This document shows, piece by piece, positions 16,561 through 60,105 of a stretch of 64,000 bases of DNA. The translations under genes were made by a program, and so were the position numbers. Numbering within the stretch: the stretch's first letter is position 1; each line of letters opens with the position of its first letter. Source of the DNA: a virus. The notes under the pieces are model-generated. The model had not been told where the DNA came from and searched no databases. It saw only the letters and a list, made by a program, of their open reading frames with translations. The DNA lies in IMG/VR virus record IMGVR_UViG_3300032116_000025, one strand, 5' to 3'.

Positions 16561-17469
16561 CTACTTGGTCTCGATATTGACCGTCAGAGGCTGACTGTAT
16601 TGTGCCTCGTTCTGGTCGTTTTGTGGAAGTCCCCCGCCTCCTGACGTGAAACCGCCGGACACGATTGACGGGGGGACGGCAGCATTTCGGGAAGCCGCAG
16701 TCTGTACAGGTTGTGCCACCGCGGTGCCTTGGAGAAGCGCCACGTTTGTCCCGCCCGAAGCTGGTGAAGTGTTGGCCGACGGTGTAGCGGAGGCTGCGGG
16801 AGAAGTACCCGTAGAGCCTGCTGGTGTCGTGGCTCCAGACACCGAAACCCCACTCACAATCTTCTTATTGAGTGGCAGCTTAGACGTGCTGTGTTGCAAA
16901 TACGCTGGAAGCGAAATGACTACAACACACCACTCAAAATCAGTGCTTTCAACAAGTGCCCCAGCGGGAGACGGGGCAGAAATAGAAGCCCTAGCCCCTG
17001 TGTAGAGGAGCTGGGGCATTGACTTCACAATCTCCTCTCGGAACGTGAAGATCTGCTCCTGAATGAACCACGCGAGCGACTCTGCCTCTACCGGCATGCG
17101 GCTTAACACGTTGATCATCAGATTGGTGGGAATCAGATCCATGCGGACCTGAGCACCGGTCTGTAAATCAACGTAGGCAAGATCTCCGATACCAACGCCT
17201 TGGAACGCCGCTCCGCTACGAAGAACGGTGATGGCGGGCCGCTTGCCAACAACTTGTGGCTTGATGGGCGTATCCGCAGAGATAAAAATCTCGGCCCCAG
17301 CCTGGTCAGGAGAGCTTTCTGCCTCCGGCTTCCATTGGTAAGCGCCAGCGGGCAGCGTAGAGAACCGCCATTTTAGAAAGCTAATGATGTGGCGGACCAG
17401 CTCAAAGGTGGGCGGGAATACCTGGCCCTGTAGGTATCCTTCAGGCGTAGTTGGGGAGATTGCCGTCAT
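16561..17469 (-). CDS. tail terminator/tail completion-like protein (putative)
   Basis: Directly upstream of the sheath gene; RPAITVLR motif; low-complexity C-terminus. Confidence 0.5.
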   Translation of the reverse strand: MTAISPTTPEGYLQGQVFPPTFELVRHIISFLKWRFSTLPAGAYQWKPEAESSPDQAGAEIFISADTPIKPQVVGKRPAITVLRSGAAFQGVGIGDLAYVDLQTGAQVRMDLIPTNLMINVLSRMPVEAESLAWFIQEQIFTFREEIVKSMPQLLYTGARASISAPSPAGALVESTDFEWCVVVISLPAYLQHSTSKLPLNKKIVSGVSVSGATTPAGSTGTSPAASATPSANTSPASGGTNVALLQGTAVAQPVQTAASRNAAVPPSIVSGGFTSGGGGLPQNDQNEAQYSQPLTVNIETK

Positions 17470-18089
17470 GGGCGTCTCGCAAGTCGGGAGCCCACGAATA
17501 CAGAAAACTCGCCTGACAGCTTTTCCTGCACCTGTTGCTGCGGAGACCGAGCACCGGCCTCATCTCGCCTGCGGGCCATCTCTCCACGGCTCCGACCCAT
17601 GGCGTAAGAACCAACTGAAGAGAGGAGTGCCGTTGCAGCGGGAATGTGTTTCGTCCACTCGGGACGCACACCTTCCCGCGCAAGCCGCTCCCCTACTGCG
17701 CCGGAAATCGTCTTTCCGATCCCCCAACCTAAGCCGGTTGCAAGAATAACAAGAGGGATGTCTTTGAGCGTCTGCTTCCAACGCTCTTCGTCCATCTTTT
17801 CTGCGCTGGTCTTGCTGCGCTTAGCGATCGGGGCGCGGTATTCCTCTTCAGTCGTTTTGATCTCGGCGTTGGTGACGCCACCGCACGCGTCGTCCGCGCG
17901 CTTTACAATCCCAGTCCCAGGTATCGAGCTTTTAACTCCAAACGTTCCTAGGGCAGGCGGTTTTAGGGCTTTATTTGTTGGCCCTACTGCGCCGAGCACC
18001 CGCCCAGCATCAAGCTGACGAAAGACGCCAGGCACGTTCGATAGCTTATCGAACGTATGCCTCAGCACAGTTTCGTCAGCCCGCGGCAT
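17466..18089 (-). CDS. virion-associated protein with two hydrophobic helices
   Basis: IPLVILATGLGWGIG and IPAATALLSSVGSYAMG; KxS/A motifs. Confidence 0.75.
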   Translation of the reverse strand: MPRADETVLRHTFDKLSNVPGVFRQLDAGRVLGAVGPTNKALKPPALGTFGVKSSIPGTGIVKRADDACGGVTNAEIKTTEEEYRAPIAKRSKTSAEKMDEERWKQTLKDIPLVILATGLGWGIGKTISGAVGERLAREGVRPEWTKHIPAATALLSSVGSYAMGRSRGEMARRRDEAGARSPQQQVQEKLSGEFSVFVGSRLARRP

Positions 18090-18090
18090 C

Positions 18091-18714
18091 TCAGCCCTTT
18101 GTCGCCCGGCCTACCATGGCGGCGGTTCCAAGCGTGCCTACCGCTCCAGCCGCCCCAAGACCCTTATGGAGCAGGTCCCTACCGGCCGCTCGCGTGGCGC
18201 CCGGCCCTAGGAAGTTCTGAGCTGCCGTGATTCCCTTATTGTAGAGCCCGGCGCCCGCGCTGCCCATACCAGCGCTGCTCATACCCTTTAGACCCAGCCC
18301 GGCAACACCCTTGCCCAGGGCGCCTAGAGTAGCCCCTAGAAACGCGGTCTTCTCAACCTCGTCGGAGAATGCGGCCCACATAACACGGTCATAAGGGGTC
18401 ATGGCTTCCTTGGTTTCCTCTGAAGGTTTTTTCTTCCGGGCTGATGCGCGAGCTTCGGCACGCTGGTGCATCCTCTGCTGCGTAACGACATCCCGCATTG
18501 ACTTCTCACGGCCCTTTAGCCCGCCGTGAACAGCCCCAATGATACCACCCACGGTCCCGAGGGTACCAGGCCCAACCTTTCCACCAGTATGCTTCAGCAG
18601 CGCTCCTAGCGCAGTACCCGCAGCGGTCCCCTTGGCGGCCTCGCCAAGGATCTCCTTTGCGTACATCGTGCTGTGGAGACCGGACTCCCCTTCGACTTTA
18701 GGACGGTCAGTCAT
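18091..18714 (-). CDS. Gly-rich virion-associated protein (putative ejection/internal protein)
   Basis: Glycine-zipper helices; AAFSDEVEKTA motif. Confidence 0.75.
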   Translation of the reverse strand: MTDRPKVEGESGLHSTMYAKEILGEAAKGTAAGTALGALLKHTGGKVGPGTLGTVGGIIGAVHGGLKGREKSMRDVVTQQRMHQRAEARASARKKKPSEETKEAMTPYDRVMWAAFSDEVEKTAFLGATLGALGKGVAGLGLKGMSSAGMGSAGAGLYNKGITAAQNFLGPGATRAAGRDLLHKGLGAAGAVGTLGTAAMVGRATKG

Positions 18715-18715
18715 A

Positions 18716-19627: not shown

Positions 19628-19636
19628 ACAGGGTGG

Positions 19637-21568
19637 TCAAGCAGCACTGAATAGTGATAGCGGCGGAGCAGGAACGTTTGTGGGGTACACCCCGCTGCTT
19701 CGAAGCTTTTGTCCCGCAGCGGCCATGCCGCTAAGCATGTTGTTGGGCTGCTTAGCTAGGTTCCTAGCTACTTCGTGAGAAACCCCATGAGACAGCTCCT
19801 GCGCCGACATAGCCGCCGTAGGAATGAGCTTTCTTTGGACTGTCTTAGCTACAGCGGACGCGGGGAGCGCAGCGCTTAGCTTTTTAAAAAGCAGCGAGCT
19901 GGCCTTTCGCAAATAGCGGTCTTCAAGCGCGGTCAACTCACTGTCTAAGCGCCTTCGAGCAGCGAGGCCCTTTTCAGACGGCACTCCTCGGGTAAGCACT
20001 GGCGGCGAAGATACGGGCTTAGTGGGGACCAGCGTAGGCGCTACTCGGCTAGCAGCGCGAGCCTCGCCGCTCTCAAACTTACGGATAGCGGAAGCGATGC
20101 CACCAAAGTCGTGCGGGGCGGCGCTGCTCAGTCCACCGGTAAGGATCTGGCCCGGCTTGAACGCGACCTTCATAGACGACTTCTTGACCCCCGGCAGGTC
20201 TAGGTTGCTAATCCTTATAAACCTTGTTCTGTCGGTGCGAGGGCCAACTGGCAGTCCTCTGGGCGGGCCGAGCGTCTTCTTCAGTTTTTCTGCCGCCGCA
20301 ACCGCAGACGGGTTGTTATGGAACAGCTCACTAAGCGCCATCCCAGCCCGGTCATTCATGCCGGCGTACTTGCCAAGCGCGGCAGATACCTTGGTGGGCG
20401 CGTCGTACTTTCCGACGTAACTAACCCGCGGGGACTGAAGGAAGTCCGAGGGCTTTGTGGCGTGGCGAGCTACCCCAGGAGCAATCCGATGCTTGCCAAA
20501 CGCGTTGGCGACCATCGACGAGCAGATAACCTGGTTCTCGTTAATCGGCTTGTCGCCGATGTCCATGAAGGCGCTAGCCGCCGCGGGAATGAGATCCTTC
20601 GTGTTGTAGTGGATCTTATCCCGGTTCTTGAAGTAGCTTTCGGCGCGCTGAACTGCTTCTTGCCGCGCTTTACCCCGGACGTTGGGGCGCACCACGGCGA
20701 CCCCAAGATCCTTGGTTAGACTCTTCAAAGGAACCTTGCGCACACCCGTTTCGGCGCGGATGTCGATTACGTTGCCATCACCGGTGTAGATACCTGCGTG
20801 GGTGTACTTGCCCTGAATGGCTCCGGATACAGCACCAAAGACGCTTCCACCAATCCGCTGGAGCAGGCCAGCATCTTCGGGAAGCGGCTGGGGCGTCATA
20901 AGAACGACGTCGCCCGGCTTCATGTTCTTGGTAAGATCTTCAACCGTCTTGTGGCTCTGAAGCTCACGAGCAACCTTAGCCACCCCGCCGCTAAACAGCG
21001 AGATCAGCTTCTCGTCGTGGGCGCCCTTGGTAACAAAGCCTTCGCCGTCGGTTCGGGGGCTTACGTGCTGTACGTCGGGAGAGACGCTTGTGTCTTGCTG
21101 ACGGCGCTCTTCACGAGTTGCGAGGCGGCCCGCAGAGTCAATCCCAAGCGCAGCACGGGGCCACTCGGGAGCCGTGGCAATCCCGTTGTTTACCTGGCCG
21201 CCGTACTCAACGTCTTCTGCGCGCTTAATCTTGCTGACTAACCCCTTGATCTTAGTGCCAAGCCCAACAGGGGGAGCAGACGCCCCGCGGGAAGCAACTG
21301 CTCGCTCTAACGAACCGCGGTCAACGGGCGCATTAAACTGAGCTACGAGCTTTTTTGTGAACTCTGGGTCTAGCTCAGACTTCTTCTTGAGCTGACCTAG
21401 CCGATGCATCTTCTCCCGAAGGGGGTCTCCGTTTGCAGCAAGCTTTTGACCCTCTCGCAGATCCGCTAGGGCGCGCATATCAAACAAAGACAACTCCTCT
21501 GGGGTCTCTGTGCGGTGGGGCGCGATGAGGCCAGCTACCACGTCATCTAAATCTGTTCGACGAGACAT
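19637..21568 (-). CDS. virion cargo protein containing a permuted NlpC/P60 (YiiX/YebB-like) papain-fold amidase domain
   Basis: KPGDVVL...YTHAGIYTGDGNVID...VICSSMVANAF...KPSDF, with His before Cys; flanked by KxA-rich regions. Confidence 0.8.
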   Translation of the reverse strand: MSRRTDLDDVVAGLIAPHRTETPEELSLFDMRALADLREGQKLAANGDPLREKMHRLGQLKKKSELDPEFTKKLVAQFNAPVDRGSLERAVASRGASAPPVGLGTKIKGLVSKIKRAEDVEYGGQVNNGIATAPEWPRAALGIDSAGRLATREERRQQDTSVSPDVQHVSPRTDGEGFVTKGAHDEKLISLFSGGVAKVARELQSHKTVEDLTKNMKPGDVVLMTPQPLPEDAGLLQRIGGSVFGAVSGAIQGKYTHAGIYTGDGNVIDIRAETGVRKVPLKSLTKDLGVAVVRPNVRGKARQEAVQRAESYFKNRDKIHYNTKDLIPAAASAFMDIGDKPINENQVICSSMVANAFGKHRIAPGVARHATKPSDFLQSPRVSYVGKYDAPTKVSAALGKYAGMNDRAGMALSELFHNNPSAVAAAEKLKKTLGPPRGLPVGPRTDRTRFIRISNLDLPGVKKSSMKVAFKPGQILTGGLSSAAPHDFGGIASAIRKFESGEARAASRVAPTLVPTKPVSSPPVLTRGVPSEKGLAARRRLDSELTALEDRYLRKASSLLFKKLSAALPASAVAKTVQRKLIPTAAMSAQELSHGVSHEVARNLAKQPNNMLSGMAAAGQKLRSSGVYPTNVPAPPLSLFSAA

Positions 21569-21580
21569 CGTTATCTCCTG

Positions 21581-23439: not shown

Positions 23440-23502
23440 GGCCTAGTTCCTTCTGATCTTGCCCACAAACGCGGCGAACTTGCCCAAACGCGGCTTGTGG
23501 CT

Positions 23503-24621: not shown

Positions 24622-24656
24622 GTGGCGCTCCTTGTTTTTTGCTTATATCAGCACAA

Positions 24657-24719: not shown

Positions 24720-25832
24720 TCAGAAGCTGACAACCTGCGGGTAGAACTGGCGGTTGCCCGCACGGTTGTTCTGCGCGCCCAGGTTCTCCTCGCTCACCGG
24801 CGTAACCGAGGCAAGGATCGCGTTCGCGTTCGTCGTCGGGTTCGCGTCGCCGGAGTACAGCTCCAGCTTACGAACCGAGGCGATGTTCACGATCGACATG
24901 CCAACATCCTTCCAAGCGACAAACTTGATGATGTTGATGACCTTGTCGATGTAGAACTTGACCTGGTTGAGCACGTAGAAGCGCCCCAGGAAGTCCGGCG
25001 AGGTGAAGCAGTACACGTTGCCCGGGCGAAGGATGTCCGTCTTGATGGTACGGACATAGCGCTTGCCAAGAAGCAGGTTGTACTTGTAGCCGTTGACGAC
25101 CGTCTCCGACTGGATCTTGTCGCCCTGGTCCTCGACGGTCCACTGAAGGATGTCGTTCCAGTCCTGCGACGTCATAAGGATCATGTCCGACTCTAGGCGG
25201 TTGCCGTCGAGCAGCTTCATGAGCCGAACCACGTCGGGGCGCTGGATAGGACGAACAACCGCGTCGTTCGTGGCCGCGATACGAGCAAGCTCGCCCTTCG
25301 TGACCGAGAACTCCACGACCGAACCCGCGCCGATGGTGGCCGCGTTGAGCGCCGTAGCGACGCCACCGTTGGCCTCCGTCTGGAGGGCCTGAACCGCGCT
25401 CTCGATGTGAATCGTGAACTCGCGGTCCTGGATCTCGCCCAGGTCACGGACGGCGTTCTGCTCGATGACCTTCCCGATTGGGAAGGCGTAAGCAAGGAAC
25501 TCCTGCTCCGGCTTCTGGAACATCTCCGACATGATCGTGATGAAGGGAACCTCCACCTTCTCACCCCGGATGAAGTTCGCACGCGGCTCGCCACGGAACG
25601 TGACAACCATCGCGCGGCTGCGCGGCTCAAGGTACTCGATCTTCACGAGCGCGTCGTGATTGGTCGAGACCTGACACTGCGAGCGGTCGACGTTCTCGGG
25701 CGGCAGAACCCGCTCAACGAACGACGCCTCACGAAGGCGGTCCCGAATGTACCCACCGAAACGGGCAGCAATCTTGCTCTTTGCACCCGGATCGGAGAGC
25801 TGGCTGAGTAGCATCTCCTTGGCGTTCGACAT
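24720..25832 (-). CDS. major capsid protein (HK97 fold, putative)
   Basis: 370 aa with strong codon bias, after the protease/scaffold genes and followed by a terminator; IRDRLREASF..RVLPP and D....EDxxF-like (EIQDREF) patterns. Confidence 0.8.
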   Translation of the reverse strand: MSNAKEMLLSQLSDPGAKSKIAARFGGYIRDRLREASFVERVLPPENVDRSQCQVSTNHDALVKIEYLEPRSRAMVVTFRGEPRANFIRGEKVEVPFITIMSEMFQKPEQEFLAYAFPIGKVIEQNAVRDLGEIQDREFTIHIESAVQALQTEANGGVATALNAATIGAGSVVEFSVTKGELARIAATNDAVVRPIQRPDVVRLMKLLDGNRLESDMILMTSQDWNDILQWTVEDQGDKIQSETVVNGYKYNLLLGKRYVRTIKTDILRPGNVYCFTSPDFLGRFYVLNQVKFYIDKVINIIKFVAWKDVGMSIVNIASVRKLELYSGDANPTTNANAILASVTPVSEENLGAQNNRAGNRQFYPQVVSF

Positions 25833-25885: not shown

Positions 25886-26365
25886 TCAGGCGAAGGTCTG
25901 GATAAAGCGGAGGCGGTTACCGTTGCTGGCCGGAAGCCGCATGACGTAACCGAGCACGATGTTAGCGCCCGCGTGAGCCACAAGGCCCCAGCGCGCCACG
26001 CTGCCCGAAAGCGCGTTGTTCACAACGCCGCCCATGAGCGCCTGGCCAAGCGTGACGACACCGACGTTGTCAAAGACAACCGTGTCCGCCTCGAAGGTCG
26101 GGCCGATGATGGCCGAGAGCTTACGCGAGGCCTGAACACCGTAGTCGCCGCGATCCTCGATAACGAAGAAGCCCGGCTTCGCGGCGTCAGTCCCGCGCGC
26201 CCACTTGTACGACGAGTTGACCTGAACGATCTCACCGTCGATAAGGGGAACGGGCGAGGTGCCCTGGGGATTAAGCAGACCCACGTCTGCCACCTCAAGC
26301 GGCTTGCGCATAAGGCGGTCGAGGGTCGGCTGGATGATCTCGAACTTGCGATCAAACGATGCCAT
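25886..26365 (-). CDS. capsid decoration/cement protein (putative)
   Basis: 159 aa, beta-rich, immediately upstream of the MCP gene, strong codon bias. Confidence 0.55.
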   Translation of the reverse strand: MASFDRKFEIIQPTLDRLMRKPLEVADVGLLNPQGTSPVPLIDGEIVQVNSSYKWARGTDAAKPGFFVIEDRGDYGVQASRKLSAIIGPTFEADTVVFDNVGVVTLGQALMGGVVNNALSGSVARWGLVAHAGANIVLGYVMRLPASNGNRLRFIQTFA

Positions 26366-26415: not shown

Positions 26416-26820
26416 TCAGCTGTAGGCGGACATTGTCTCTACGAAACCCTCTAACACATCACCGCTGTCACCGGCGGAGTAAAGCTCCCCGCTCGAAGCC
26501 CGCTTCTCGCCCGTCTGCGGCTGCTCGACGTGCCCGAGGCGGAACCCACCCGCTGTAAGCTCAACGGCCTCTTCTACGGCCGCTAGCTTAGTGACGGGAA
26601 GCTGCGCGATCTTCGCCACCTTCGACTCAAAGTCGAGCGCTGGCTCAATCCCGCGAACCTCCATACGGCGAGCAAGCTTCATCGTGCGAAGCTCGTGCCG
26701 AAGACCGTCGTTTTCCTCAGCAAGGCCGACGTTGGCCTCAGCTAGCTTACGCATGTGCTGCGCAGCCTCGTGAAGAACGCCGGGAACTTGCCCCGCTACC
26801 TTTGTCATCTTGTTACTCAT
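26416..26820 (-). CDS. scaffold-like head protein
   Basis: The ATG at 26820 follows SD GAGGA; helical, with several KxA motifs. Confidence 0.7.
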   Translation of the reverse strand: MSNKMTKVAGQVPGVLHEAAQHMRKLAEANVGLAEENDGLRHELRTMKLARRMEVRGIEPALDFESKVAKIAQLPVTKLAAVEEAVELTAGGFRLGHVEQPQTGEKRASSGELYSAGDSGDVLEGFVETMSAYS

Positions 26821-26828
26821 GCTGTTCC

Positions 26829-27002
26829 TCACTTCCTAAGCTGCGCAAAAACCTGACCAAGATGTTTGTCGTTGGCCGATTTTACAGCGGCTACAACTTG
26901 TTGAGCGTAAGCGCGCTCGTGAGTGTCCGCGTCTGGGTCTGACGCCACCTTTACTGCGCGCTCTAAGAACGCGCGGCCAAGATCAACGTTAGGGCGAGTC
27001 AT
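26829..27002 (-). CDS. small head-module protein (57 aa, not in ORF track)
   Basis: MTRPNVDLGRAFLERAVKVASD...VFAQLRK fills the gap exactly; carries a KVAS motif. Confidence 0.7.
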   Translation of the reverse strand: MTRPNVDLGRAFLERAVKVASDPDADTHERAYAQQVVAAVKSANDKHLGQVFAQLRK

Positions 27003-27014
27003 CGTTCCGATTCC

Positions 27015-28673
27015 TCACTTCCTAAGCTCCGCAAGCGTTTTGCTGCTGAGAATGCGGTCTTTCAGATCTTCAGCCGCCCAGGTTACAGACTTTGCACTCC
27101 TCCTCGGGTCTAGGTACTCTATCTTGCGCCCCCCCTGCTCGATAGCATCCGCCACTCGGCGGCCCGCTGAAGCAGCACCTTCCCCGGCACTACGTACTGC
27201 TAGCCCAGCGCGCTGGACGGCTTGTCCGGTACCAGCTAGCGCGCGATCTGTAGCGGTGAGTAGGCCACGACCAGCCTTTCCGGCCAGGTGCTTTGCGGCA
27301 TCCGCAACGCCCGCTTCTTTCAACCGTTCAGCGTCAATGGTGGTTAAGGCGGAGGTCTTTTCACGCGCCTTCTGCTCAAGGAAAGCACGCGCAGCCTCCC
27401 GGCGTCCACGATCCCAATCCGCGTACGCGGGCCCGCCCCAGAAGTACTTTGCGCCAGACGGCCGAGCGTTAAGAATGTCCCGAGCCGCCGACTCGGTCAT
27501 CTCATTCTTGGCTTGGTGCTTTTTGTACGCCTGCTGGTACTTTTCGGACTTGAACTCAGCCTTGGCCTTCTGTTTTTCGGATAGGCCTTTGCTCTCGGCT
27601 TTCGCCTTGAGCTTCTCAAGCTTCTCCTCCCACGACTTGGCCGTCTTCTCACTTCCGCCGAAAGGGAGGCCGAGTGCTTCTCCCACAGCGTCAAGCGAGG
27701 AAACCTTCAGGCCGTCAGTACGAAGAGTGTGGGCCGCCACGGCGTTATCCTGCCGCGGGGTCTCCGACAGATACTCAGACGTAGTGCGGACTGAGCGATC
27801 CTTCGCCTGAGCCCTGCTCATGGCAATGAGGCCAGCGTTATCCGGAATCATGCTGGACTCGCCGGGCTCCGTGCTCATACGGAAGCTCTCGTTGTGGGCC
27901 GGAAGCTCCGGGGGAGGTGAGGAAGGGTCCTGCGCCTGCTTGTAGACCTCTTGCATGAGCGCCTCAGCCGCCTTGGTCTGGCCAAGGCGAGAAAGCAGCT
28001 CAGCCTGGGCGACCTTGGCGCGAAGAACCCGCTCCGAAGCCTCCTTGCTGCGTGTCCAGCCGGCGGTCTTGCCCGTGTTATTCGGGGGCATCTGACCGTC
28101 AAGCTTGCCCGTGTGGTCAGCCTTGCTCGTCGGAAGGTCCGAGTTGCTGAGCGACGGGCCGGAAATGCGGCCCGACACTGTAGACTGAGCGCGCGGGTGT
28201 GCAGTCTGCTCCCCGATGAACCCGCTAGACATTACGTCTGGGCCGGGGGCGCTTAATGGCGATGTACCCGCACCCCCGGTGCCCACCGTAACGGGCGACG
28301 GGTGCGTGGAGGGATCAGTGTCCGCAGCCAGCTTTGCGACAAGGTAGGCGCTTTGCTCAAGCGCGGTCGCAAGCTTCAGCCCATAGGCGGCGTCATCCCG
28401 AATACGAAGGGCGCTCTCCTTCTTTTCATGCTCCCCGTGCTCGTGGTGCATGGAGCGCTCGTGCTCCTTCATGATCTTCTTTGCGCCCTCACGCTCCTTC
28501 TTGGAGAAGGAATCCTCCTCCGAAGCAGCGGTCTTGGCCCGGGGCTCCGCCAGCTCAGCAGCGAGGAAGTCCCCTGAGTCTACAGTCGTAGCGTCGTAGG
28601 CAGACGCAATCTTGAGGTTCCTGTCAGCGTCAGACAGGGCCGAGTTCACGATCTCGCTTAGGGACTTACCCAT
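27015..28673 (-). CDS. scaffold/core-like head protein, KxA-rich
   Basis: 552 aa, low complexity, SD AGGAGA, many KxA/S motifs. Confidence 0.8.
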   Translation of the reverse strand: MGKSLSEIVNSALSDADRNLKIASAYDATTVDSGDFLAAELAEPRAKTAASEEDSFSKKEREGAKKIMKEHERSMHHEHGEHEKKESALRIRDDAAYGLKLATALEQSAYLVAKLAADTDPSTHPSPVTVGTGGAGTSPLSAPGPDVMSSGFIGEQTAHPRAQSTVSGRISGPSLSNSDLPTSKADHTGKLDGQMPPNNTGKTAGWTRSKEASERVLRAKVAQAELLSRLGQTKAAEALMQEVYKQAQDPSSPPPELPAHNESFRMSTEPGESSMIPDNAGLIAMSRAQAKDRSVRTTSEYLSETPRQDNAVAAHTLRTDGLKVSSLDAVGEALGLPFGGSEKTAKSWEEKLEKLKAKAESKGLSEKQKAKAEFKSEKYQQAYKKHQAKNEMTESAARDILNARPSGAKYFWGGPAYADWDRGRREAARAFLEQKAREKTSALTTIDAERLKEAGVADAAKHLAGKAGRGLLTATDRALAGTGQAVQRAGLAVRSAGEGAASAGRRVADAIEQGGRKIEYLDPRRSAKSVTWAAEDLKDRILSSKTLAELRK

Positions 28674-28910: not shown

Positions 28911-29819
28911 TCACTCCACCCAGCCGCTCTCCTTAAGGATTTCAAGCGCACGGATACGCACGAGGTCGTCGTCCGACGCAACCTTGCCGGTGTCCGGGTC
29001 GATCCCGTTGTCAACGAGAGCCTGACGCGCCATCTCCAGCGCGGCCGCCTCAATCGCTGACTCCTTATCCATGTCCTGCATCATCTTGCGCTTCTGCTTC
29101 GAGCGGCCCACGCCCTTACCGACCATGTAGGCGCCGCCGGTCGTAGCCGTGCCAAGCGCGAGGCCACCCTTGTGCTCCTTGGCGAAGTCAAGAGCCTTGT
29201 CGGTGTTGCGACCGACAAAGTCCTTAGCCTTCGACAGGCCACCCTTGATGCTCTCGTAAACGCCCTTAGCGGCCTCGGTCTTCGCGTCGCTGGCCAGCTT
29301 GTACTGCTCGTCAACAAACGCGCGCGCCATAAGGCGGCCGATAGCGTCAGCCTCGGCGACCTTCGCCTCTACCTCGGCGTTCGCCATCTTCTCAGCCTCG
29401 TACTCCGGGCTGGTCATCGCGGCGGCCATACGGTCAAAGGCCTCGTGGTACGCCTCGCGGCTAACCTCGTTAAGGTCGATGCCGTTCGCCGCCGCGTACT
29501 TGCCAAGCTCGGCAGCAACGTCGGCAAACGTAACGGTGTCGGGGATGCCCGCCTTCTTCTCTGAGGTCTCACGCTTCTCACGCTTCTCCGCGTGCTCCTT
29601 GCGCTCCTCCTCCTCGGACTCAGCGGCCTCATGGTCAGCGGCGAGCTTGCTGGGCATAAGCTCAACGATAAGCTCGGCCACCTGGTCGTCTGTAAGAAGA
29701 CTGAGATCCACGCCCTGATCGAGGGCGACCTTCTCTAACACCTGGGCAGCGGTAGCCAGCTCCGCGTCAAGGTCGGTGCCCGCGGTGTCCTGCTCAAAGA
29801 TCTCTCGGATATCATCCAT
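28911..29819 (-). CDS. scaffold-like acidic head protein
   Basis: 302 aa, acidic and helical, directly after the protease; many KxA motifs; one Gly-rich helix. Confidence 0.75.
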   Translation of the reverse strand: MDDIREIFEQDTAGTDLDAELATAAQVLEKVALDQGVDLSLLTDDQVAELIVELMPSKLAADHEAAESEEEERKEHAEKREKRETSEKKAGIPDTVTFADVAAELGKYAAANGIDLNEVSREAYHEAFDRMAAAMTSPEYEAEKMANAEVEAKVAEADAIGRLMARAFVDEQYKLASDAKTEAAKGVYESIKGGLSKAKDFVGRNTDKALDFAKEHKGGLALGTATTGGAYMVGKGVGRSKQKRKMMQDMDKESAIEAAALEMARQALVDNGIDPDTGKVASDDDLVRIRALEILKESGWVE

Positions 29820-29887: not shown

Positions 29888-31657
29888 TCAAACCATCAGC
29901 CCCGCTTTGCCGAAAAGGTGCTCCGCAGCCTGCACCAAACTACTTGTCTTGTCGACTAGCATAGTTTGACGGAGGGCAGCTCCAATGGTGTGCATCGCTT
30001 CAAACGAGCCGTTGTCTGCGATGAGTTTAGCCATTTTGCTGATCTGGGATCCCTCTTCGCCAGAGCGACGAAGATGCGATGAAATAAACTGTATCATAGG
30101 CCCGTGACCTAGGAGAAGTTCTCCGAGGTCCGGTTCAACCTGCGCACCCTCAGCTCCGGAGAGTAAGTCTAGGTCCAGATACTCTGCGGACTTTGGGAAT
30201 AGAGAATGCGCCTGTTCTAGTACAGAAATTCGGTAGCCGTTGTACATCTCCGCAACCTTGTTTAGGAGCGGAGCGTTCAACTCTACGCGCCGAGATGAAG
30301 CAAGCTTTGGCCCGCTCTCAGACATGCGGCGCATGAGGAACGGGTCGAAGCTTGAACGCTCGTCCATTAGGGCGGAAAAAGCCGAAGCAAGCTTGGCGTC
30401 GTAGTGTTGAGGAGAAACTGCGTATGTGTTGTCTACGCCAGGGGCTCGGGTGTCGAACGTAGCGTTACGCTCGTCCAACGCCTTCTTGAGCAGATCGCCA
30501 CCCTCCATCCCCGGCAACACCAAAGACTGGAACTCTCCGGGGGTAGGAATGATGCCAAGAGCAGCGAGGGTGGACAGCACCTTTCGTGGGTCAGAGCCCG
30601 ACCCACGAACAATAACGCTCATGCTCAGCTCTGGCGTGGTGTCCGCATCCCTAAACGCGGCCTCAGAAACGCCGCCAGGGATTTCCTTCTCAATCATCGA
30701 ACGCTTTGTCGATGCGTGAGACACCTTAGCCGAAAGCATGTTGAGGAGTTTCTCCAGCATACCGGCTGGAGGCCCTAAGCGCGGGGCAGACACTGGAGCA
30801 TCTGGAGAGGACAGATGCCACATCACGCGGGCCGTTCGGTCTGCGCCAATCCAAACGAAGCTAATGTCAAAGAAGCGGGGGAAGTCGTTGTACACGAAGA
30901 CCTTGCGGCCATCCGGGTACACCTTCCCGCCCTCGTTGATCATGTGCTGGCAGTAGTCAACCTTAGTCACCGCCAAGCCCCGGATCGGCCGGACCTTTCG
31001 GTGGTACTCAAGGATTGCGATTCCTGGGTGCCGATGGCGGGACTCGTCGTAAGTCTTCCAGGCTTTTTTGACTTCGTTCCAGTCTGTACAGATGGAACAA
31101 AGGTCAAAAGGAACCTTACACCCCATGCTTACGTCGACGCGCTCTCCCGCGCGAACTCGGTCAAGAATGGAGGTGTGGCCTTTCTTCTGGGCCTCTTCGT
31201 TGAACACGCGCTTGACCAGCTCAACCCGCTTCATGGCTGGGTTGAGCGTCGCAAAGATCACGTCACCAAAGCCCAACTGCTGCGGGTCCGTGTTCTTGTG
31301 GTGCGCGTATACGGTAGCTCCGTAGAAGCAAGGGTAGCCGTAGGGCCAAGCCTTCCCCTTCATACGGTCAGCTTCAGCGTTACACCCGATGTCGTCCCAC
31401 GAGTGTAAGAGCCCGTTGAAGTCTAAGTGAGAGTTGTAGCCGTACCAGTCTTTGTTGGAGTTGGCTCCGTAAAACTCGGAGTACCCCATCGCGTTACAAA
31501 GAACGTACGTGTACCGGGGGTCTGGCTTTAAGCAGTCACAGAACTTCTGTGCCTCTGGAGCAAGCCCCGCCACCTTCTCCATCTCACCCGGACGAAGAAC
31601 ACGGACGAGGGGCTCCCCGTCGTGCTCCCCCGCGAAGTATGACCGCTTGATAAGCAT
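29888..31657 (-). CDS. prohead (capsid maturation) serine protease with Zn-binding insertion
   Basis: N.NKD, VYAHHKN, VSMGCKV...CSIC...YCQH, FFDISFV..GADRTA; upstream of the scaffold and MCP genes. Confidence 0.8.
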   Translation of the reverse strand: MLIKRSYFAGEHDGEPLVRVLRPGEMEKVAGLAPEAQKFCDCLKPDPRYTYVLCNAMGYSEFYGANSNKDWYGYNSHLDFNGLLHSWDDIGCNAEADRMKGKAWPYGYPCFYGATVYAHHKNTDPQQLGFGDVIFATLNPAMKRVELVKRVFNEEAQKKGHTSILDRVRAGERVDVSMGCKVPFDLCSICTDWNEVKKAWKTYDESRHRHPGIAILEYHRKVRPIRGLAVTKVDYCQHMINEGGKVYPDGRKVFVYNDFPRFFDISFVWIGADRTARVMWHLSSPDAPVSAPRLGPPAGMLEKLLNMLSAKVSHASTKRSMIEKEIPGGVSEAAFRDADTTPELSMSVIVRGSGSDPRKVLSTLAALGIIPTPGEFQSLVLPGMEGGDLLKKALDERNATFDTRAPGVDNTYAVSPQHYDAKLASAFSALMDERSSFDPFLMRRMSESGPKLASSRRVELNAPLLNKVAEMYNGYRISVLEQAHSLFPKSAEYLDLDLLSGAEGAQVEPDLGELLLGHGPMIQFISSHLRRSGEEGSQISKMAKLIADNGSFEAMHTIGAALRQTMLVDKTSSLVQAAEHLFGKAGLMV

Positions 31658-32490: not shown

Positions 32491-32808
32491 TCAGTAACCC
32501 TGTGGATAGCCCGCGCCCGGAGAGATTAGACCATGGCGCGCGCGCCACTGGTCTACCCGGTTTGCTCCTGCGGTTAGGCCAGACTTAGCAAGCTGGGCGC
32601 CCCCAAGCAGAGTACCACCTACAGCAAGTCCGACGCCGAGGTTTTTGGGCGCACCAAGGCTTTCAGCAAACCGGCCGCCATGCTCACCCACATGACTGAT
32701 GACGTCCATCGTGCCGTGAGCAAGCTGCTTTAGCGCAGAGGCGGCAGTCTCTGATTTGCCTGCGGTCTTGAGCAACGCGCGCGCAATAGCGTGTCCACGA
32801 GAGGTCAT
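32491..32808 (-). CDS. small Gly-rich membrane-type virion protein
   Basis: ARALLKTAG, then LGVGLAVGGTLLGGA. Confidence 0.7.
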   Translation of the reverse strand: MTSRGHAIARALLKTAGKSETAASALKQLAHGTMDVISHVGEHGGRFAESLGAPKNLGVGLAVGGTLLGGAQLAKSGLTAGANRVDQWRARHGLISPGAGYPQGY

Positions 32809-33599
32809 GAGGTCCTCCGGTTGGCCTTGATCCAGTTGCTAACCTTGTGCAACTCCGCCTCTAGTTCGGTGAGCGCCCGCTGGTGGGCCTCGTAGCTATG
32901 CGCGGACTTAGAGAAGTCCGCAAACGTACGAACTACAGAAGAGCGAGGGCTGATCTCTCGCCCAGCTACCTTTGTTCCGTCACCGTGCATAAGGTGGCTA
33001 AGCTTACCAAACGCCAGCTTTGCAAGCTCTGCGTCTACCTTGGCCCAAGCAGAGAAGATCTCGCCGGAGGTGGCCCCTTGGAGTGAAGCTGCCTTCACCT
33101 CACCAGATAGAGAAACTAGGTGCTCGTTCATATCGCCGCGAGCAGCCTCGTAGTTCTGCGTAACCTCGTCGTGAGCAGCACGAAGCCGGTCACTCAGGGC
33201 GTGCACATCCCCGCGCACCCCGTCTGCCGTTCGAGCCGAATCCACAAAGGAGAACGAAGAGGTCTTAAACTGCTCAGGAGGCATCGAGTACTCAAGCACG
33301 TCGATTGTTACCTCCCGGGGCCGCGCCCCGTCGTTAAGAGCTTGTAGCACGGCAGCTGGGTCCGCAGGCCCACCGTCAATGTGAACCGCGCGCATGGAAC
33401 CGGAGGTCGAGGCGAACTTACGATTAAACGCCTCAACATTTGCCTGCTCCACCACGCGCCGAACCTGCTCGGAGTTAAGCTTTACATGCCCAATCGTGTG
33501 AACGACGGCTTCGGTAAGGCTTAGATCTCCGGTCTCGGCAAGCCGTGCGGCTTGCTTTCCGAGGTTTTCGAAGGTCATAGCATCCATGGGGGTATCCAT
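32805..33599 (-). CDS. head-module protein, KxA-rich
   Basis: 264 aa; LNSEQVRRVVEQAN; first gene of the minus-strand head operon. Confidence 0.8.
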   Translation of the reverse strand: MDTPMDAMTFENLGKQAARLAETGDLSLTEAVVHTIGHVKLNSEQVRRVVEQANVEAFNRKFASTSGSMRAVHIDGGPADPAAVLQALNDGARPREVTIDVLEYSMPPEQFKTSSFSFVDSARTADGVRGDVHALSDRLRAAHDEVTQNYEAARGDMNEHLVSLSGEVKAASLQGATSGEIFSAWAKVDAELAKLAFGKLSHLMHGDGTKVAGREISPRSSVVRTFADFSKSAHSYEAHQRALTELEAELHKVSNWIKANRRTS

Positions 33600-33657: not shown

Positions 33658-36055
<2,398 letters not shown>

Positions 36056-36759: not shown

Positions 36760-36765
36760 ACCACT

Positions 36766-54051: not shown

Positions 54052-54053
54052 CA

Positions 54054-55952
54054 CTACCTGCGAGGCGGAAGAACCTCAGGTTGCGGACGCATATCTACCC
54101 CGGGGGGTTGTTGCTGCTGAGAAGGCACACCGCCCGCGTTTCCAACCGATGGCGTGCTCGGTAGGTTCGGCATGCCCTGCTGCTGAAGCATCTGCACGGC
54201 TTCCGGCATCTGAACTTGTAGCTGCTCCAAATACTGCCGACGTCGATCCTCCGGCATACGCTTAACCTCTTGGGCAAGCGCAGCAGCCGCTGCGTCAAGC
54301 GGCACACCGGCGGGTTGCATAAGCTGAGAAGTTTGCGCCGCAATAAACGGGTCTGGAGGAGGGGCTTGGGCAGCCGCCTGGGCTTGAACCATGGCGGCCT
54401 GCGCCTTAGCCTGCGCCTTGGCCATAACCGTCTGAGCTTCAGCCTGTACTTCAGCCTGCAATAGCTGCTGCTTTCTAATAGCCTCGGCCCGAAAGCCCGA
54501 CTCGCTAATCTGAAGATCCGCTTCGTCCTCGACCTTTAGATCCGCGTACGACAGCAGAGTCGTGTCGCTGATTTTTCCGGCTTGGTTAAGCTGGAACATC
54601 AACGCCTGACGCTGAAGATCATCCGCCATTCGGAACGGCTTAAACCGCGCGTCTGGGGTAGGCCAGTTCATGAACGCCCCCATGCGCCGGATAACCCAGT
54701 GCAGCAAGCGGAGCTGGCTGTGGACGTTAGATAGGAAGAAGTTCTCCAGCATTCGCATAGAGACACTGGTGCCCGCGTAACTGCCCTGCCCGAAGACAAG
54801 ATCAGACGGGAACCCCATGCCGACGGCAATCATCTCCGTCATTGCGCGGATTTCCGGCATCAGCAGAAGGCTTCTCCCGTTTTCCCCGATGACCTGATGG
54901 CCAATGGGGAAGGGAAGGATGCCGTAGTAGCTTGGGTCCATCCTCTGCCGAGCAAGCTCCCGGCGGATGTGATCGCGCCAGTTTTGTAGGTTAGACACCG
55001 TGAACGGGTCTGCGCCCCCGGTAGCCGGCTGCGGGAACAAGAAGATCTGCGGAACTAGGTGCGTAAGAAGAACCGCCTCCTGAGCCTTCTTCATGACCTG
55101 GACGTAGAAGGCGTCCTTCATGACGGGCATCAAAAGCGGCGTTCCCCACCCGCGGTTGGCAGAACTTAGGCTTGGGCGACGGAGATGGAAAACCTCCTGC
55201 CGGTCAAACACTAGACTTCGGCGCATCTTGATGGCGTCGAGGAAGATCTCAGGCGTAGTAGCCACGAGGTCTTTTCGTCCCATCTGGATCTGGGCGCGGA
55301 AGTCTGGAGAGATGTCTAGCAGGTAGTCGAGTCGGCCCGTCGACTCGTTGTAAAAGATCTGTACGTTCTCCGGGTTCCAGCGAATAAGGCTTACCTCGCT
55401 GTACTTCGGGTAGTAGTCGTCGCGGCTCTTGGCAAAGTCCGTTTGCCCGCACTTTTGGCAGGTCAGCCAAAACCGGTGGTTGATAAACCGCCAGTAGGGG
55501 CGGCTCTCAAGAGCGTCCGACTCCGACCCGCAGCTTTCGCAGATTAGCTTCTTTCGAAATGGGAAGCTGGGGCTTACAAATGCGTTCCCGTAAACGTAGT
55601 AGTCAAGGTTCACCTCAAACTGGTGAACCCGGTAGTTCATTACACCGAGAAGAAGCTCTTCCCACTTGTTTACAACGGCGCGGTCCTTGTGCTGAATCAC
55701 AAGGTCAGTAACCGGGTACTCCGACGCCTTTGTATTGATCGCGTTAATTACGCCGTGTGTTAGGTGGTAGAAGCGGCAAAAGCCAAACAGGCTTTTGACC
55801 GTAGGAGGGGTGTATGTGCTTGCCTGATCAAAGAACGGGTTTGCAAAAGGTTGATACCGACGACCTAGGATTTGTGACCTAGACGCGGTTCCATCGAACA
55901 TCGCGCTTCGGCCTTGGCCGAACGCGGAGCCACCTCCACCAAAGAAGGTCAT
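54054..55952 (-). CDS. portal protein (with Zn-ribbon insertion)
   Basis: DYYVYGNAF, VFHLRR....GWGTPLL, IAVGMGFP.DLVFG..SYA patterns; Q/A-rich C-terminus. Confidence 0.8.
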   Translation of the reverse strand: MTFFGGGGSAFGQGRSAMFDGTASRSQILGRRYQPFANPFFDQASTYTPPTVKSLFGFCRFYHLTHGVINAINTKASEYPVTDLVIQHKDRAVVNKWEELLLGVMNYRVHQFEVNLDYYVYGNAFVSPSFPFRKKLICESCGSESDALESRPYWRFINHRFWLTCQKCGQTDFAKSRDDYYPKYSEVSLIRWNPENVQIFYNESTGRLDYLLDISPDFRAQIQMGRKDLVATTPEIFLDAIKMRRSLVFDRQEVFHLRRPSLSSANRGWGTPLLMPVMKDAFYVQVMKKAQEAVLLTHLVPQIFLFPQPATGGADPFTVSNLQNWRDHIRRELARQRMDPSYYGILPFPIGHQVIGENGRSLLLMPEIRAMTEMIAVGMGFPSDLVFGQGSYAGTSVSMRMLENFFLSNVHSQLRLLHWVIRRMGAFMNWPTPDARFKPFRMADDLQRQALMFQLNQAGKISDTTLLSYADLKVEDEADLQISESGFRAEAIRKQQLLQAEVQAEAQTVMAKAQAKAQAAMVQAQAAAQAPPPDPFIAAQTSQLMQPAGVPLDAAAAALAQEVKRMPEDRRRQYLEQLQVQMPEAVQMLQQQGMPNLPSTPSVGNAGGVPSQQQQPPGVDMRPQPEVLPPRR

Positions 55953-57873: not shown

Positions 57874-58565
57874 CCCGCCGGGTCGACCTCATACGAGAGT
57901 GCGTAGTCATGCGTCCCATCTGGCGCCGCCGCTGGCGTGTAAAGGCGGCCGTCAAGGGTAGCCGTTGGCGGGTCAATCAGGGCGCCGTCCATCACCTCGC
58001 GGAAGATCGCAGCAAGGCCCGCGCGGGTCTTGACGGCTCCAAACAAACCCAGCGCCGCCCCGTACCCGATCTTAAACGTGCCGGTCGTAAGCAGGTTGGC
58101 CGGGATCTGGACCTCCTCAATCGTCTGGAGGCCACGGCGCTCCGTCGACGTAAGGACGTCGTTACCGTCGTCGTTGGGCTGCACAAAGTTAAGCGTCACC
58201 CGCTCGCCGTAGCAAGTCCCAATGACCTTAATGGTACCCGTGCTAAACGCGTTCGCCGTGTTTGAGCGGGTAATGACGATCTCACGGGCAAGGCTGCCGG
58301 GGGTCGAGGAGGCTAGAAAGCTTCCAGCCGACGCGCGCAAGGTTACCGCCGACGTTGAGCCGTTGAAGGGGGCCTTGAAATAGGCGTCATCCGCGACGGC
58401 AGGGTTTGTAAACTCGTCTGTACGGATAAACCCGCCGGACTCAAGGAGCCCAAACGCCGCATCGACGTCAAGGCGCAGATCGTAGATCTCCGCGGCCTGA
58501 CCACCGGGGCCGACAATCAGGTGGGGCTTACGCGGGTTTGACGCACCAAAATGACGAGAGGACAT
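57870..58565 (-). CDS. virion structural protein (beta-rich; decoration-like)
   Basis: 231 aa, SD AAGGAG, G/T/A-rich. Confidence 0.75.
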   Translation of the reverse strand: MSSRHFGASNPRKPHLIVGPGGQAAEIYDLRLDVDAAFGLLESGGFIRTDEFTNPAVADDAYFKAPFNGSTSAVTLRASAGSFLASSTPGSLAREIVITRSNTANAFSTGTIKVIGTCYGERVTLNFVQPNDDGNDVLTSTERRGLQTIEEVQIPANLLTTGTFKIGYGAALGLFGAVKTRAGLAAIFREVMDGALIDPPTATLDGRLYTPAAAPDGTHDYALSYEVDPAG

Positions 58566-58593
58566 AGTAGATCTCCTTCAGTTCGTTAGACAA

Positions 58594-60105
58594 TCAGATG
58601 CGGAAGGTCTGGGACGAGTTATCCGACGCGAGGCGCGATAGTACCACCTTTTGCGGATCGGGCATGGACTTGAAGATTCCCACGGGGTCGGTCTGGAACG
58701 ACTGGCTGAACCCCGACCCAAACGTAGTGTCTAGGTCTGCTCGACGGGAGGCCAGAGCTTTCAGCATCGCGCCGCTGACGTAGTCGCCACCGCTTCGCCA
58801 GGAGTACACGTCCTCTTCCGCGGGCTGAGCCTCGCTGAGCTTAGGCTGGCCGTAAACTGCCTCATAAGGGTCGCGGAACCCGACCCCGGGACGACCGTAT
58901 ACAAGGTCTGCACCCGATTCGTGATCTGCTTCACGAAGCATGTCTGCCATGATGTTAGGGCTGATCGAGCTGACTTTTTCAAGGAGCAACTCGTAAACCT
59001 CTTCGTGTCCGCTACCCGCGTAACTAGAGACCCGAGCGTGCAACTCCGGGTGAATAAACGGGCCGTACTCGACACCCCCGTAAGCAAGAGCAGACCCGGA
59101 GATCTTAACCCCAAGCTCGTCCGCGCGGCCCAAAACCGACTGCGAGAACACCCGCCGGTCTAGTGGGGAGAACGAGTAAAGGTGCTCGTCTAAGTACGCC
59201 GACGCGGTTTTAAGCTGGTTGACGGTGTCGATTGGGTAGAGACCCTTGTGGGGCATCGCAAAGTGCTGGTGCGATGCCTCCTTGTGGCGAACCGGGGAAG
59301 ACTCGTGGGTAAGGTCTACCGAGACACCCAGCGAGGATGTCTTAGAGGTCACGCCGGCAGAGCGGAGGGGACTTGCCTTTGCGTGCCCCCGGCGCTGCTG
59401 GTGGCTCATGGCCTCGGTGTTGTTTAGGTCCGCGACCTTCTTCGCTTGCTCCGCAAACTCTCCATGCTGTACTTGCCGGTCAAGCTTGCGGTGCGTCGGC
59501 CCATGCTGGGAGAACTGGTCTAGCGGGCCAAAAATGTAACCCGACTCTGGGCCCTCGGCACGCTGCATGGCGGCGTCCTGGTCCATTGTAAGCTGGATCT
59601 CCCGCCCCGACGCTACCTTTGCGCCCGCCATCTGATTGGCGCGGAAGACTTCCATACGCTCACGGCCCTTGGCGTTTTCTTCGCGGGCTGAGTTCGCAGC
59701 GTCCCCAATACCCTGACCAATGGTAAGCGCGTTCATCGCCATGTTAAGGAGCGCTTCCTTCTTCAAGAAGCTTGGCGGGTCCTGGTCGTACCAGCCGCAC
59801 CCCTCTACTAAGTTTGAGGCTACCTTTGCCCGTACATGATCCGGAAGAAGGTGTCCGCACTCTGCAAAGTAGAGGATGGAAGTAGCGAGGTGCCCCTCGT
59901 CATGCATAGCAAACTTGCGGAGTGTGTCCCCGTGATTGCTTGCTACTAGTGCAAACAACCGGTCCGGTAGACGCTCCAGCTCCTCGTGGTCTAGCAGACG
60001 AGAGGAGGCAAGCTTCTGGGGCAGCGAGCGCCCAGCCATCTTGTTTCGGAGAACGACTCCCTTTGGGTCGTCGTAAATGTCTAGGATCACGCCTGCGAGG
60101 TTCAT
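58594..60105 (-). CDS. head-associated KxA-rich protein with two LPD..FA / FA.P....YPID modules
   Basis: LERLPDRLFA...RKFAMHD and HFAMPHKGLYPID resemble DUF6582-like phage head modules. Confidence 0.75.
   Translation of the reverse strand: MNLAGVILDIYDDPKGVVLRNKMAGRSLPQKLASSRLLDHEELERLPDRLFALVASNHGDTLRKFAMHDEGHLATSILYFAECGHLLPDHVRAKVASNLVEGCGWYDQDPPSFLKKEALLNMAMNALTIGQGIGDAANSAREENAKGRERMEVFRANQMAGAKVASGREIQLTMDQDAAMQRAEGPESGYIFGPLDQFSQHGPTHRKLDRQVQHGEFAEQAKKVADLNNTEAMSHQQRRGHAKASPLRSAGVTSKTSSLGVSVDLTHESSPVRHKEASHQHFAMPHKGLYPIDTVNQLKTASAYLDEHLYSFSPLDRRVFSQSVLGRADELGVKISGSALAYGGVEYGPFIHPELHARVSSYAGSGHEEVYELLLEKVSSISPNIMADMLREADHESGADLVYGRPGVGFRDPYEAVYGQPKLSEAQPAEEDVYSWRSGGDYVSGAMLKALASRRADLDTTFGSGFSQSFQTDPVGIFKSMPDPQKVVLSRLASDNSSQTFRI

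Follow-up and report, generated by a model that had tools for sequence, protein, structure and literature searches.

The 64,000-nucleotide stretch of DNA analysed here (the window), from IMG/VR virus record IMGVR_UViG_3300032116_000025, has a GC content of about 58% and derives from a large uncultured tailed phage. A subset of its encoded proteins is enriched in a Lys-x-Ala (K-x-A) motif. We consider it likely that the prohead serine protease of the phage itself, the N-terminal domain of the protein encoded at 29888, recognises this motif, with the cut probably falling after the Ala. From the motif statistics, the conservation of the sites and the fold of the protease we infer cleavage, its catalysis by 29888 and its register. 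The motif is attributed to 29888 because conserved sites lie at the enzyme's own domain borders, because motif and enzyme travel together across relatives, because the major capsid protein (MCP) carries a single conserved site, and because a phage T4 positive control gave the corresponding pattern. Most likely, Lys at P3 and Ala at P1 constitute a cutting rule not yet described for phages, within the known kind of prohead protease.

K-x-A is enriched in a subset of window proteins

Genes were called as the longest non-overlapping open reading frames (ORFs), which gave 54 proteins. All 400 a-x-b residue pairs were ranked blind, without prior choice of a motif, and composition was controlled by comparing seen with expected counts over 1000 shuffles within each protein. 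K-x-A was the top pair in four proteins unrelated to one another, 26416, 32805, 40098 and 58594 (7 seen versus 1.0 expected, 6 versus 1.6, 10 versus 3.3 and 9 versus 2.4, respectively) and the second of all pairs in the 29888 protein (8 versus 3.1). The excess was modest in the 28911 protein (8 versus 4.3, p 0.05) and weak in the 27015 protein (11 versus 7.4), while K-x-S was the top pair in the 17466 protein (5 versus 0.8). When all 54 proteins were pooled K-x-A was absent from the top pairs, so the signal belongs to a subset of proteins. Apart from the protease, which is described below, these are encoded as follows:

32805..33599, minus strand: 264-amino acid (aa) protein of the most motif-rich family of the head module; 9 Kx[AS] sites versus 2.8 expected
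28911..29819, minus strand: acidic helical protein of 302 aa, scaffold-like, between protease and MCP; 10 Kx[AS] sites about 20-30 aa apart
27015..28673, minus strand: 552-aa protein; conserved 20-aa N-terminal leader ending in K21-I-A before S, then a variable linker with further sites
26416..26832, minus strand: 138-aa protein; cutting at its 7 KxA sites is predicted to give peptides of about 20 aa
40098..42182, minus strand: 694-aa protein; N-terminal site K21-L-A before G, and site clusters at aa 187-336 and 496-603 that separate three site-free blocks
58594..60105, minus strand: 503-aa protein; 14 Kx[AS] sites (4.5 expected), spread over aa 22-422
17466..18089, minus strand: 207-aa K-x-S-enriched protein, a weaker case judged on the window protein alone

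For the directional control we used an enriched set of eight window proteins, in which K-x-A occurred 60 times versus 24.7 expected (z 8.1). AxK, KA, AK, KxxA, AxxK, KxxxA and RxA showed no excess in the same eight proteins. As the reversed and shifted pairs are at expectation, K-x-A is a directional signal and not a local Ala/Lys bias, and Ala/Lys-rich helical composition can be dismissed as its cause. The Ala codons at the sites are mixed, which places the signal at the level of protein and not of DNA. A DNA repeat or codon artefact is ruled out by these varied codons, by the GC range of the relatives described below (0.49-0.67) and by the very different base composition of phage G.

The window site contexts give the full signal as hydrophobic (L/F/M)-x-Lys-(Thr/Leu/Val/Ile)-Ala-(Ser/Ala/Gly), with the hydrophobic residue two positions ahead of the Lys, Leu, Val, Ile or Thr in the middle, and Ser, Ala or Gly after the Ala. 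The Lys is the most strictly required residue. Upstream, the context consists of a hydrophobic residue at -2, Glu or Val at -1 and weaker hydrophobic peaks at -9 and -12, and internal sites are alike in this respect. The same preferences recur in independent relatives and in a family-wide tally of 1771 sites. A strict form of the motif, K[LVIMFT][AS][SGA], was refined on the window proteins themselves; it occurred 37 times versus 3.3 expected in the eight enriched proteins (z 19) and 16 times versus 10.8 in all other window proteins. Single proteins gave 9 versus 0.56 (40098), 8 versus 0.36 (58594), 4 versus 0.49 (29888), 3 versus 0.24 (32805) and 3 versus 0.45 (28911), and the 27015 protein, weak in plain K-x-A, was significant by this measure (6 versus 0.94). 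No strict site was present in the terminase, the portal, the gyrase or most plus-strand enzymes, the exceptions among non-head proteins being the 51362 protein (plus strand) with two sites and the RNA polymerase (minus strand) with one.

An earlier note on this DNA, made from the letters alone, had described dense K-x-A sites in a list of head proteins and proposed a composition-corrected count. The enrichment survives within-protein shuffling, in a narrower set than was claimed. All of the strings quoted for 28911 and 27015 are found in the translations, and 26416, 32805, 40098 and 58594 are indeed enriched, as are 28911 modestly and 27015 through the strict motif. Two proteins on the list owe their sites to composition: the 2452-6885 protein (15 versus 19.4; strict motif 2 versus 1.9, both from within-protein shuffles) and the 19637 protein (6 versus 5.9; strict motif 3 versus 0.86, p 0.06). 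The former was also considered as a KxA-delimited polyprotein, a reading rejected on the same counts. That sites would be sparse elsewhere was borne out, K-x-A being slightly depleted outside the enriched set (65 versus 82.7). A depletion in the RNA polymerase (5 versus 12.5) was not used as evidence; it was not reproduced in the Arash RNA polymerase subunits and may be due to chance.

The motif recurs across relatives and in cultured phages

Relatives were assembled from more than 700 metagenomic homologues of the protease and 351 confirmed viral-contig stretches, the best 80 of which were kept as loci; the contigs of the relatives reach about 195 kb. Pair ranking was carried out on same-strand ORFs within 8 kb in 79 IMG/VR loci that had been picked only for encoding a protease-domain relative. 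K-x-A was the top pair in 73 of the 79 and ranked first or second in 78, with a median z of 5.9 across GC contents of 0.49 to 0.67. An orthologue of the 32805 protein is present in all 79 loci, and its family holds 777 sites versus 201 expected (z 44). The corresponding values are 676 versus 298 (z 23) for the protease family, 85 versus 18 (z 16.5) for the 26416 orthologues and 187 versus 84 (z 12.8) for the 28911 orthologues. Three syntenic metagenomic relatives, L001-L003, encode proteases 45-58% identical to 29888, and K-x-A is the top pair in their orthologues of 32805, 26416, 28911 and 27015. K-x-A is a recurring family-wide feature and not a peculiarity of the window.

Three cultured phages encode true, very distant homologues of the 29888 N-terminal domain: Vibrio phage D69 (VPHD69_0270), Salmonella phage Arash (gp222) and Bacillus phage G (gp19), the largest cultured phage. 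The matches have 24-28% identity and E values from 1e-8 to 9e-20. In all three phages K-x-A is the top or a near-top pair in the genes around the protease; in Arash and D69 the motif takes the form [LMI]-x-K-x-A-[SA]. These two phages differ from the window phage in having no detectable homologue of 40098 or 58594. In the 81 kb of Arash that were scanned, the enriched proteins all belong to the head module and had been identified in virions by mass spectrometry (MS; PMC10585845). The head module of the window runs 32805, 32491, 31657, protease 29888, 28911, 27015, 26416, 25886 and MCP, and this order, in which scaffold-like genes stand between protease and MCP, is kept in L001-L003, Arash, D69 and phage G.

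As a positive control, the same blind scan was applied to phage T4. In gp22, gp68 and gp21 it ranked LxE and IxE, the gp21 motif established by experiment, above all other pairs, which was not so in the terminase, sheath or tube proteins.

The 29888 N-terminal domain resembles T4 gp21 and assemblin

The features of the 29888 protein were defined with an alignment of 38 homologous sequences and a structural model:

29888..31657, minus strand: putative prohead protease precursor of 589 aa, with more than 700 metagenomic homologues; short N-terminal leader, protease domain, linker and helical C-terminal domain
30788..31573, minus strand: predicted protease domain, aa 29-290, of gp21/assemblin fold (domain model with a predicted local distance difference test score, pLDDT, of 75.7)
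31568..31576, minus strand: N-terminal site K28-V-A30 before G; K-[TVL]-[AS]-[GS] in 36 of 38 homologues
31298..31303, minus strand: His119-His120, candidate catalytic His, invariant in the 38 homologues
31127..31129, minus strand: Ser177 in DVSMG, candidate nucleophile, invariant
30950..31099, minus strand: insert with Cys187, Cys190 and Cys236 (and a His), nearly invariant
30698..30727, minus strand: linker sites K311-V-S and K318-R-S, past the protease domain, a putative release-site analogue (K318 in 35 of 38, K311 in 19 of 38)
30299..30307, minus strand: C-terminal domain site K451-L-A before S, in 30 of 38 homologues within an otherwise variable stretch

The alignment shows a very conserved domain at aa ~40-290, in which His119-His120, Asp175 and Ser177 are invariant, followed by a hypervariable linker and a helical C-terminal half. 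Searching Pfam and PHROGs gave no match for the 29888 protein or for the 38 homologues. When the domain-only model was compared with 48,161 representative chains in VIA-align, without a prefilter, T4 gp21 (5jbl_A) was the sole chain at Z of at least 8, with Z 8.7 and a root-mean-square deviation of 2.8 Å over 131 of 165 aa. Herpesvirus proteases came next, with values of 5.2-6.9 for varicella-zoster virus (6.9), human cytomegalovirus and Kaposi's sarcoma-associated herpesvirus. The full-length model also matched T4 gp21 best (Z 7.7). Foldseek returned no significant match for the full-length model; with the domain model its top hits, about 35, were all herpesvirus proteases, at E 0.02-0.3, none past the significance threshold. 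The spacing between His119/120 and Ser177 (57-58 aa) is similar to that between His85 and Ser140 of T4 gp21 (55 aa), and the conservation of these residues makes them the presumptive catalytic His and Ser.

We accept, by inference from the model, that the N-terminal domain of 29888 is a prohead protease with the fold of MEROPS clan SH (S21, S77, S78 and S80), lying outside any curated sequence family (Pfam Peptidase_S77, S78, S80 and S21; PHROG protease families). This assignment, which the earlier note had made, is strengthened by the gp21/assemblin-like fold, by the adjoining scaffold-like genes and MCP, and by the distant homologue in phage G, gp19, which is annotated as a head maturation protease (PMC12484599) and keeps the DVSMGC motif.

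The conserved sites of the protein lie at its domain borders. The N-terminal EKVA site quoted in the earlier note is present as K28-V-A30 and is the one kept in 36 homologues. The flanks of the K311 site have an identity of only 0.07 in the 38-sequence alignment, and the linker is modelled at pLDDT below 50; K311 is a short linear motif maintained in a hypervariable linker. Metal binding by the insert with Cys187, Cys190 and Cys236, the Zn insert of the earlier note, is plausible; the three residues are lost jointly in two of the 38 homologues (P0049 and P0067).

Many of the protease homologues are 920-1020 aa long through inteins (Pfam PF14528, PF05203 and others), among them P0007, P0057 and about 25 more. 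There are two insertion points, between DVSMG and C180 and between PFDL and C187, 3 and 10 aa downstream of Ser177. Inteins are often located near active sites. Their presence in a prohead protease seems unusual, and their position points to the Ser177 region as the active site.

Sites in the capsid protein and predicted processing

The MCP and the further genes with N-terminal sites are:

24720-25832, minus strand: MCP, 370 aa (phrog_2522, E 1.3e-9; 24% identity to the Salmonella phage Arash MCP)
25767..25775, minus strand: sole MCP site, K20-I-A22 before A, with predicted loss of a 22-aa N-terminal peptide
26829..27014, minus strand: small ORF whose N-terminal part ends in VKVA before S
31657-32475, minus strand: 272-aa protein with a K-x-A site in its first 10-20 aa, conserved in L001-L003
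32491-32808, minus strand: 105-aa protein with a K-x-A site in its first 10-20 aa, conserved in L001-L003
21581..22975, minus strand: ferritin/rubrerythrin-like protein (PF02915, E 8e-4); N-terminal site K37-L-A before A, conserved in L001

The single SKIA string that had been pointed out near the MCP N-terminus is confirmed at K20, and Kx[AS] is kept at this position in 59 of 59 recovered orthologues. In Arash and D69 the MCP has GL[TV]KEA before G, at K27. The residue after the MCP site differs among the orthologues in L010-L089, being Ala or Ser in close relatives (AK[ST]KIAA) and Glu or Gln in distant ones (GKEK[ILMV]A[EQ][YF]); this split may mean that the preference at P1' has shifted among members of the protease family. 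N-terminal sites are conserved wherever orthologues were checked, except in 24010, whose N-terminal KMA is not conserved in three orthologues and was taken as a chance occurrence.

These observations are consistent with the following sequence of events. The protease precursor would be built into the prohead and, inside the assembled prohead, would free itself at K28 and at the linker sites K311/K318. It would then take the 22-residue peptide off the MCP and trim short N-terminal peptides from about ten other head proteins (27015, 26416, 32805, 32491, 31657, 21581, 40098, 58594 and others). The scaffold-like or core proteins 28911, 27015, 26416 and 32805 would be chopped into peptides of about 20-30 residues, the pieces of which would leave the shell before DNA entry, and 40098 and 58594 would be cut at their linker clusters. 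The scaffold role of 28911 is suggested by its position and composition, and 40098 looks like a chain of domains destined for cutting apart. Look-ups of 40098 and 58594 in the ESM Atlas were uninformative. The 32805 protein is weakly similar at its N-terminus to Arash gp220, which was identified in virions by MS (PMC10585845).

Position of the cut and alternative explanations

The earlier note had proposed that 29888 cuts after K-x-A. The part of this claim that concerns recognition fits the data well: the sites behave as a recognition motif in their linker islands, at the MCP N-termini, across the 79 relatives and by comparison with the T4 control. For the register, the agreement is one of fit with the P3-x-P1 layout of the T4 and herpesvirus enzymes. 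A cut after Ala is the most likely register, with Lys at P3, Ala or Ser at P1 and a small residue at P1'; it is probable because same-fold relatives read P3 and P1, and because Ala followed by Ser, Ala or Gly is assemblin-like. That the same protease cuts after the Lys, in trypsin-like fashion, is improbable. The Lys is indeed the residue required most strictly, but such a cut would put three specificity positions (x, A and S/A/G) on the primed side, which is unusual, and the characterised enzymes of the fold that serve as the analogy have their cut after P1 (L/I-x-E in T4; A-x-E in SPN3US, PMC10052503; V/L-x-A before S in herpesviruses, PMC4498786).

K-x-A might also not be a protease site at all, but serve structure or binding in helical scaffold proteins, or mark Lys residues for modification or cross-linking. 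While many carriers are Ala/Lys/Glu-rich and helical and some sites fall in predicted helices, we hold this to be very improbable: the motif is directional, sites lie in hypervariable, low-confidence linkers, a single site marks the extreme N-terminus of every MCP orthologue and the N-terminus of the protease, and the distribution among carriers copies that of the T4 cleavage motif. It is barely plausible that another enzyme makes the cuts, whether a protease of the host or the 19637 protein with its papain-like domain (C92/LRAT-type). Catalysis by 29888 is predicted from a model, and aa 237-358 of 19637 do weakly match Peptidase_C92 and LRAT; NlpC/P60-type virion domains are, however, usually cell-wall hydrolases, a protease of the 29888 type accompanies the motif in all tested relatives of the window phage, as far as phage G, and the conserved sites at the protease's own domain borders are those that autoprocessing would give.

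Several points weigh against cleavage of these sites by 29888. The case for K-x-A cleavage, in the window phage and its relatives alike, is built from sequences and a predicted fold. Pfam, PHROGs, a PDB sequence profile search and hhalign against T4 gp21 all gave no link from 29888 to a protease family, and at Z 8.7 the T4 gp21 match stands just moderately higher than MCE domains (6-7), which share the beta-barrel and set the background. The candidate catalytic residues were picked by conservation and spacing and not by residue-level superposition. The K467 and K489 sites lie within predicted helices of the protease C-terminal domain and may be structural and not cut, and the phage G MCP is without K-x-A near its N-terminus. 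Orthologous sites are also not independent events, so that the large family-wide z values overstate the number of independent observations.

N-terminal leaders

In at least nine window proteins a strict site falls within aa 11-42, against a rough expectation of about 0.5 from residue frequencies. Short N-terminal propeptides are thus real as a feature of these sequences. The leaders range from 5 to 45 aa in length; those of the 32805 family show free variation, in contrast to the conserved leaders of 27015, 28911 and the MCP, the first of which is kept in L001-L003. Six leader strings had been quoted in the earlier note, and all are present, although AAFSDEVEKTA is internal (aa 114 of the 18091-18714 protein) and RAFLERAVKVA sits in the small ORF 26829-27014 on the minus strand. 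The further suggestion, that an F..E..K-x-A helix serves as a packaging tag, is not supported by the sequences: from one protein to another the leaders have nothing in common except the extended cleavage context, which is the same at internal sites.

A broader version of this idea is that leaders ending in the motif act as capsid-targeting sequences that are then cut off, the motif being a packaging as well as a cleavage code. The excess of early sites, the conservation of the sites checked and of the 27015 and 28911 leaders themselves, and the hydrophobic residues recurring at -2, -9 and -12 would suit it, as would the presence of leaders on likely cargo types, the ferritin-like 21581 and the NlpC/P60-like 19637 proteins. 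We regard it as rather unlikely, since there is no cross-protein consensus beyond a cleavage context identical at internal sites, the leaders differ widely in length and, in the 32805 family, in sequence, one of those quoted is internal, and short propeptides also occur on proteins that need no targeting, namely the MCP and the protease. The window peptides resemble T4 capsid-targeting sequences in being short and in ending at a predicted prohead-protease site, and the T4 sequences are poorly conserved too, so the missing leader consensus cannot decide the matter by sequence.

It is unlikely that both propositions hold together, i.e. that Lys-x-Ala is a new, very widespread assemblin-fold specificity class and that the leaders are capsid-targeting tags loading cargo (the ferritin-like protein, the papain-like hydrolase and the multi-domain proteins 40098 and 58594). 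If they did, one could read from the sequence which proteins are packaged and use a leader as a transferable tag to bring foreign proteins into large capsids, and the class would span Bacillus phage G to hundreds of uncultured phages of about 150-195 kb.

Comparison with known prohead proteases

T4 gp21 (MEROPS S77) is the best structural match of the 29888 N-terminal domain and has a similar His-Ser spacing. Its P3-x-P1 motif, like K-x-A, abounds in the protease itself and in proteins of the scaffold and core, occurs singly near the MCP N-terminus and is absent from tail proteins and the terminase. The two systems differ in the motif, L/I-x-E (gp22, gp23, gp24, gp67, gp68 and internal proteins) versus K-x-A with a small P1' residue, and there is no detectable sequence similarity between the enzymes. 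T4 gp21 has 212 aa, whereas 29888, at 589 aa, also contains a Cys-rich insert and a helical C-terminal domain of 270 aa. The MCP propeptide, predicted at 22 aa in the window, is 65 aa in T4 gp23.

Herpesvirus assemblin (pUL26/pUL80a, MEROPS S21) belongs to the same fold family (VIA-align Z 5-7) and shares with the predicted window sites an Ala at P1 and a small P1' residue, as in its R and M sites (YLQA before T, VQA before S). In the herpesvirus protease-scaffold precursor, the sites for release and maturation have Ala as their last residue, with Ser or Thr next (PMC4498786). The precursors are also alike in layout: the protease comes first, then a linker bearing a conserved site of self-cleavage (putative in 29888), then a helical C-terminal domain with more sites. 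In contrast, P3 is Val, Leu or Ile in assemblin and Lys in the window, which has many more sites per protein. The C-terminal part of the assemblin precursor is a scaffold, a role that the 29888 C-terminal domain may share, and the catalytic triad of assemblin is Ser-His-His, whereas 29888 has candidate His and Ser residues.

The proteases of phiKZ (gp175) and SPN3US (gp245) process many head and ejection proteins, fragment multi-motif propeptides and cleave themselves (PMC10052503), and the processing predicted for the window phage has the same traits. In these phages several copies of the motif are present per propeptide, which is cut into fragments (PMC10052503). They differ in having Glu at P1 (S/A/G-x-E or A-x-E) and belong to another lineage, and their sites are MS-verified whereas those of the window are predicted.

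No report of a Lys-x-Ala prohead-protease motif was found within the literature searched, and neither the Arash paper (PMC10585845) nor the phage G genome paper (PMC12484599) mentions processing or a cleavage motif.

Few prohead-protease rules have been measured, namely Glu at P1 in T4 and phiKZ-type phages and Ala before Ser in herpesviruses, and to our knowledge a motif with Lys at P3 and Ala at P1 is unlike every measured phage rule. If correct, the rule would represent a new specificity for the gp21/assemblin fold, covering a large, scarcely annotated lineage that includes three cultured phages. It would allow processed head proteins and the mature start of the capsid protein to be predicted from sequence, of use for model building in cryo-electron microscopy and for mass calculations, and would separate disposable scaffold from retained cargo. 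Tryptic proteomics may have missed such a rule, as trypsin cuts after the motif Lys and the peptide reaching to the natural cut shrinks to a dipeptide. The rule is directly testable in the cultured phages.

Other genes in and around the head module

The remaining landmarks of the window, in which strict sites are few or absent, are:

34115-36055, plus strand: gyrase B
36804-38633, minus strand: large terminase
43335-49538, minus strand: fused beta-beta' RNA polymerase, single chain (Pfam Rpb2_6, Rpb1_2, Rpb1_3 and Rpb1_5), inside the virion gene block
54054-55952, minus strand: portal (match to the phage G gp14 portal, E 7e-15), without an N-terminal site

The ferritin/rubrerythrin-like 21581 protein is encoded in the head-tail module, and its homologues in L001 and L003 also match Ferritin. 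By analogy with the ferritin-like cargo of encapsulins, it may be packaged capsid cargo. The 19637-21568 protein (minus strand, 643 aa) has a K42-L-A site, and its weak match at aa 237-358 is to a permuted papain-like domain; the protein could be a cell-wall hydrolase carried in the virion. The gene at 25886-26365 (minus strand), immediately upstream of the MCP, encodes a conserved 159-aa protein without a conserved site, which is a candidate decoration protein in view of its position, like that of the phage G capsid decoration gene gp26. The 31657-32475 and 32491-32808 proteins have Gly/Ala-rich hydrophobic, membrane-like segments past their sites, a pattern kept in three relatives. The 2452-6885 protein (minus strand) is 1477 aa long and Ala/Pro-rich, has an InPase domain at its start (PF18823, E 6.5e-39) and shows strong enrichment in P-x-P (36 versus 12.8).

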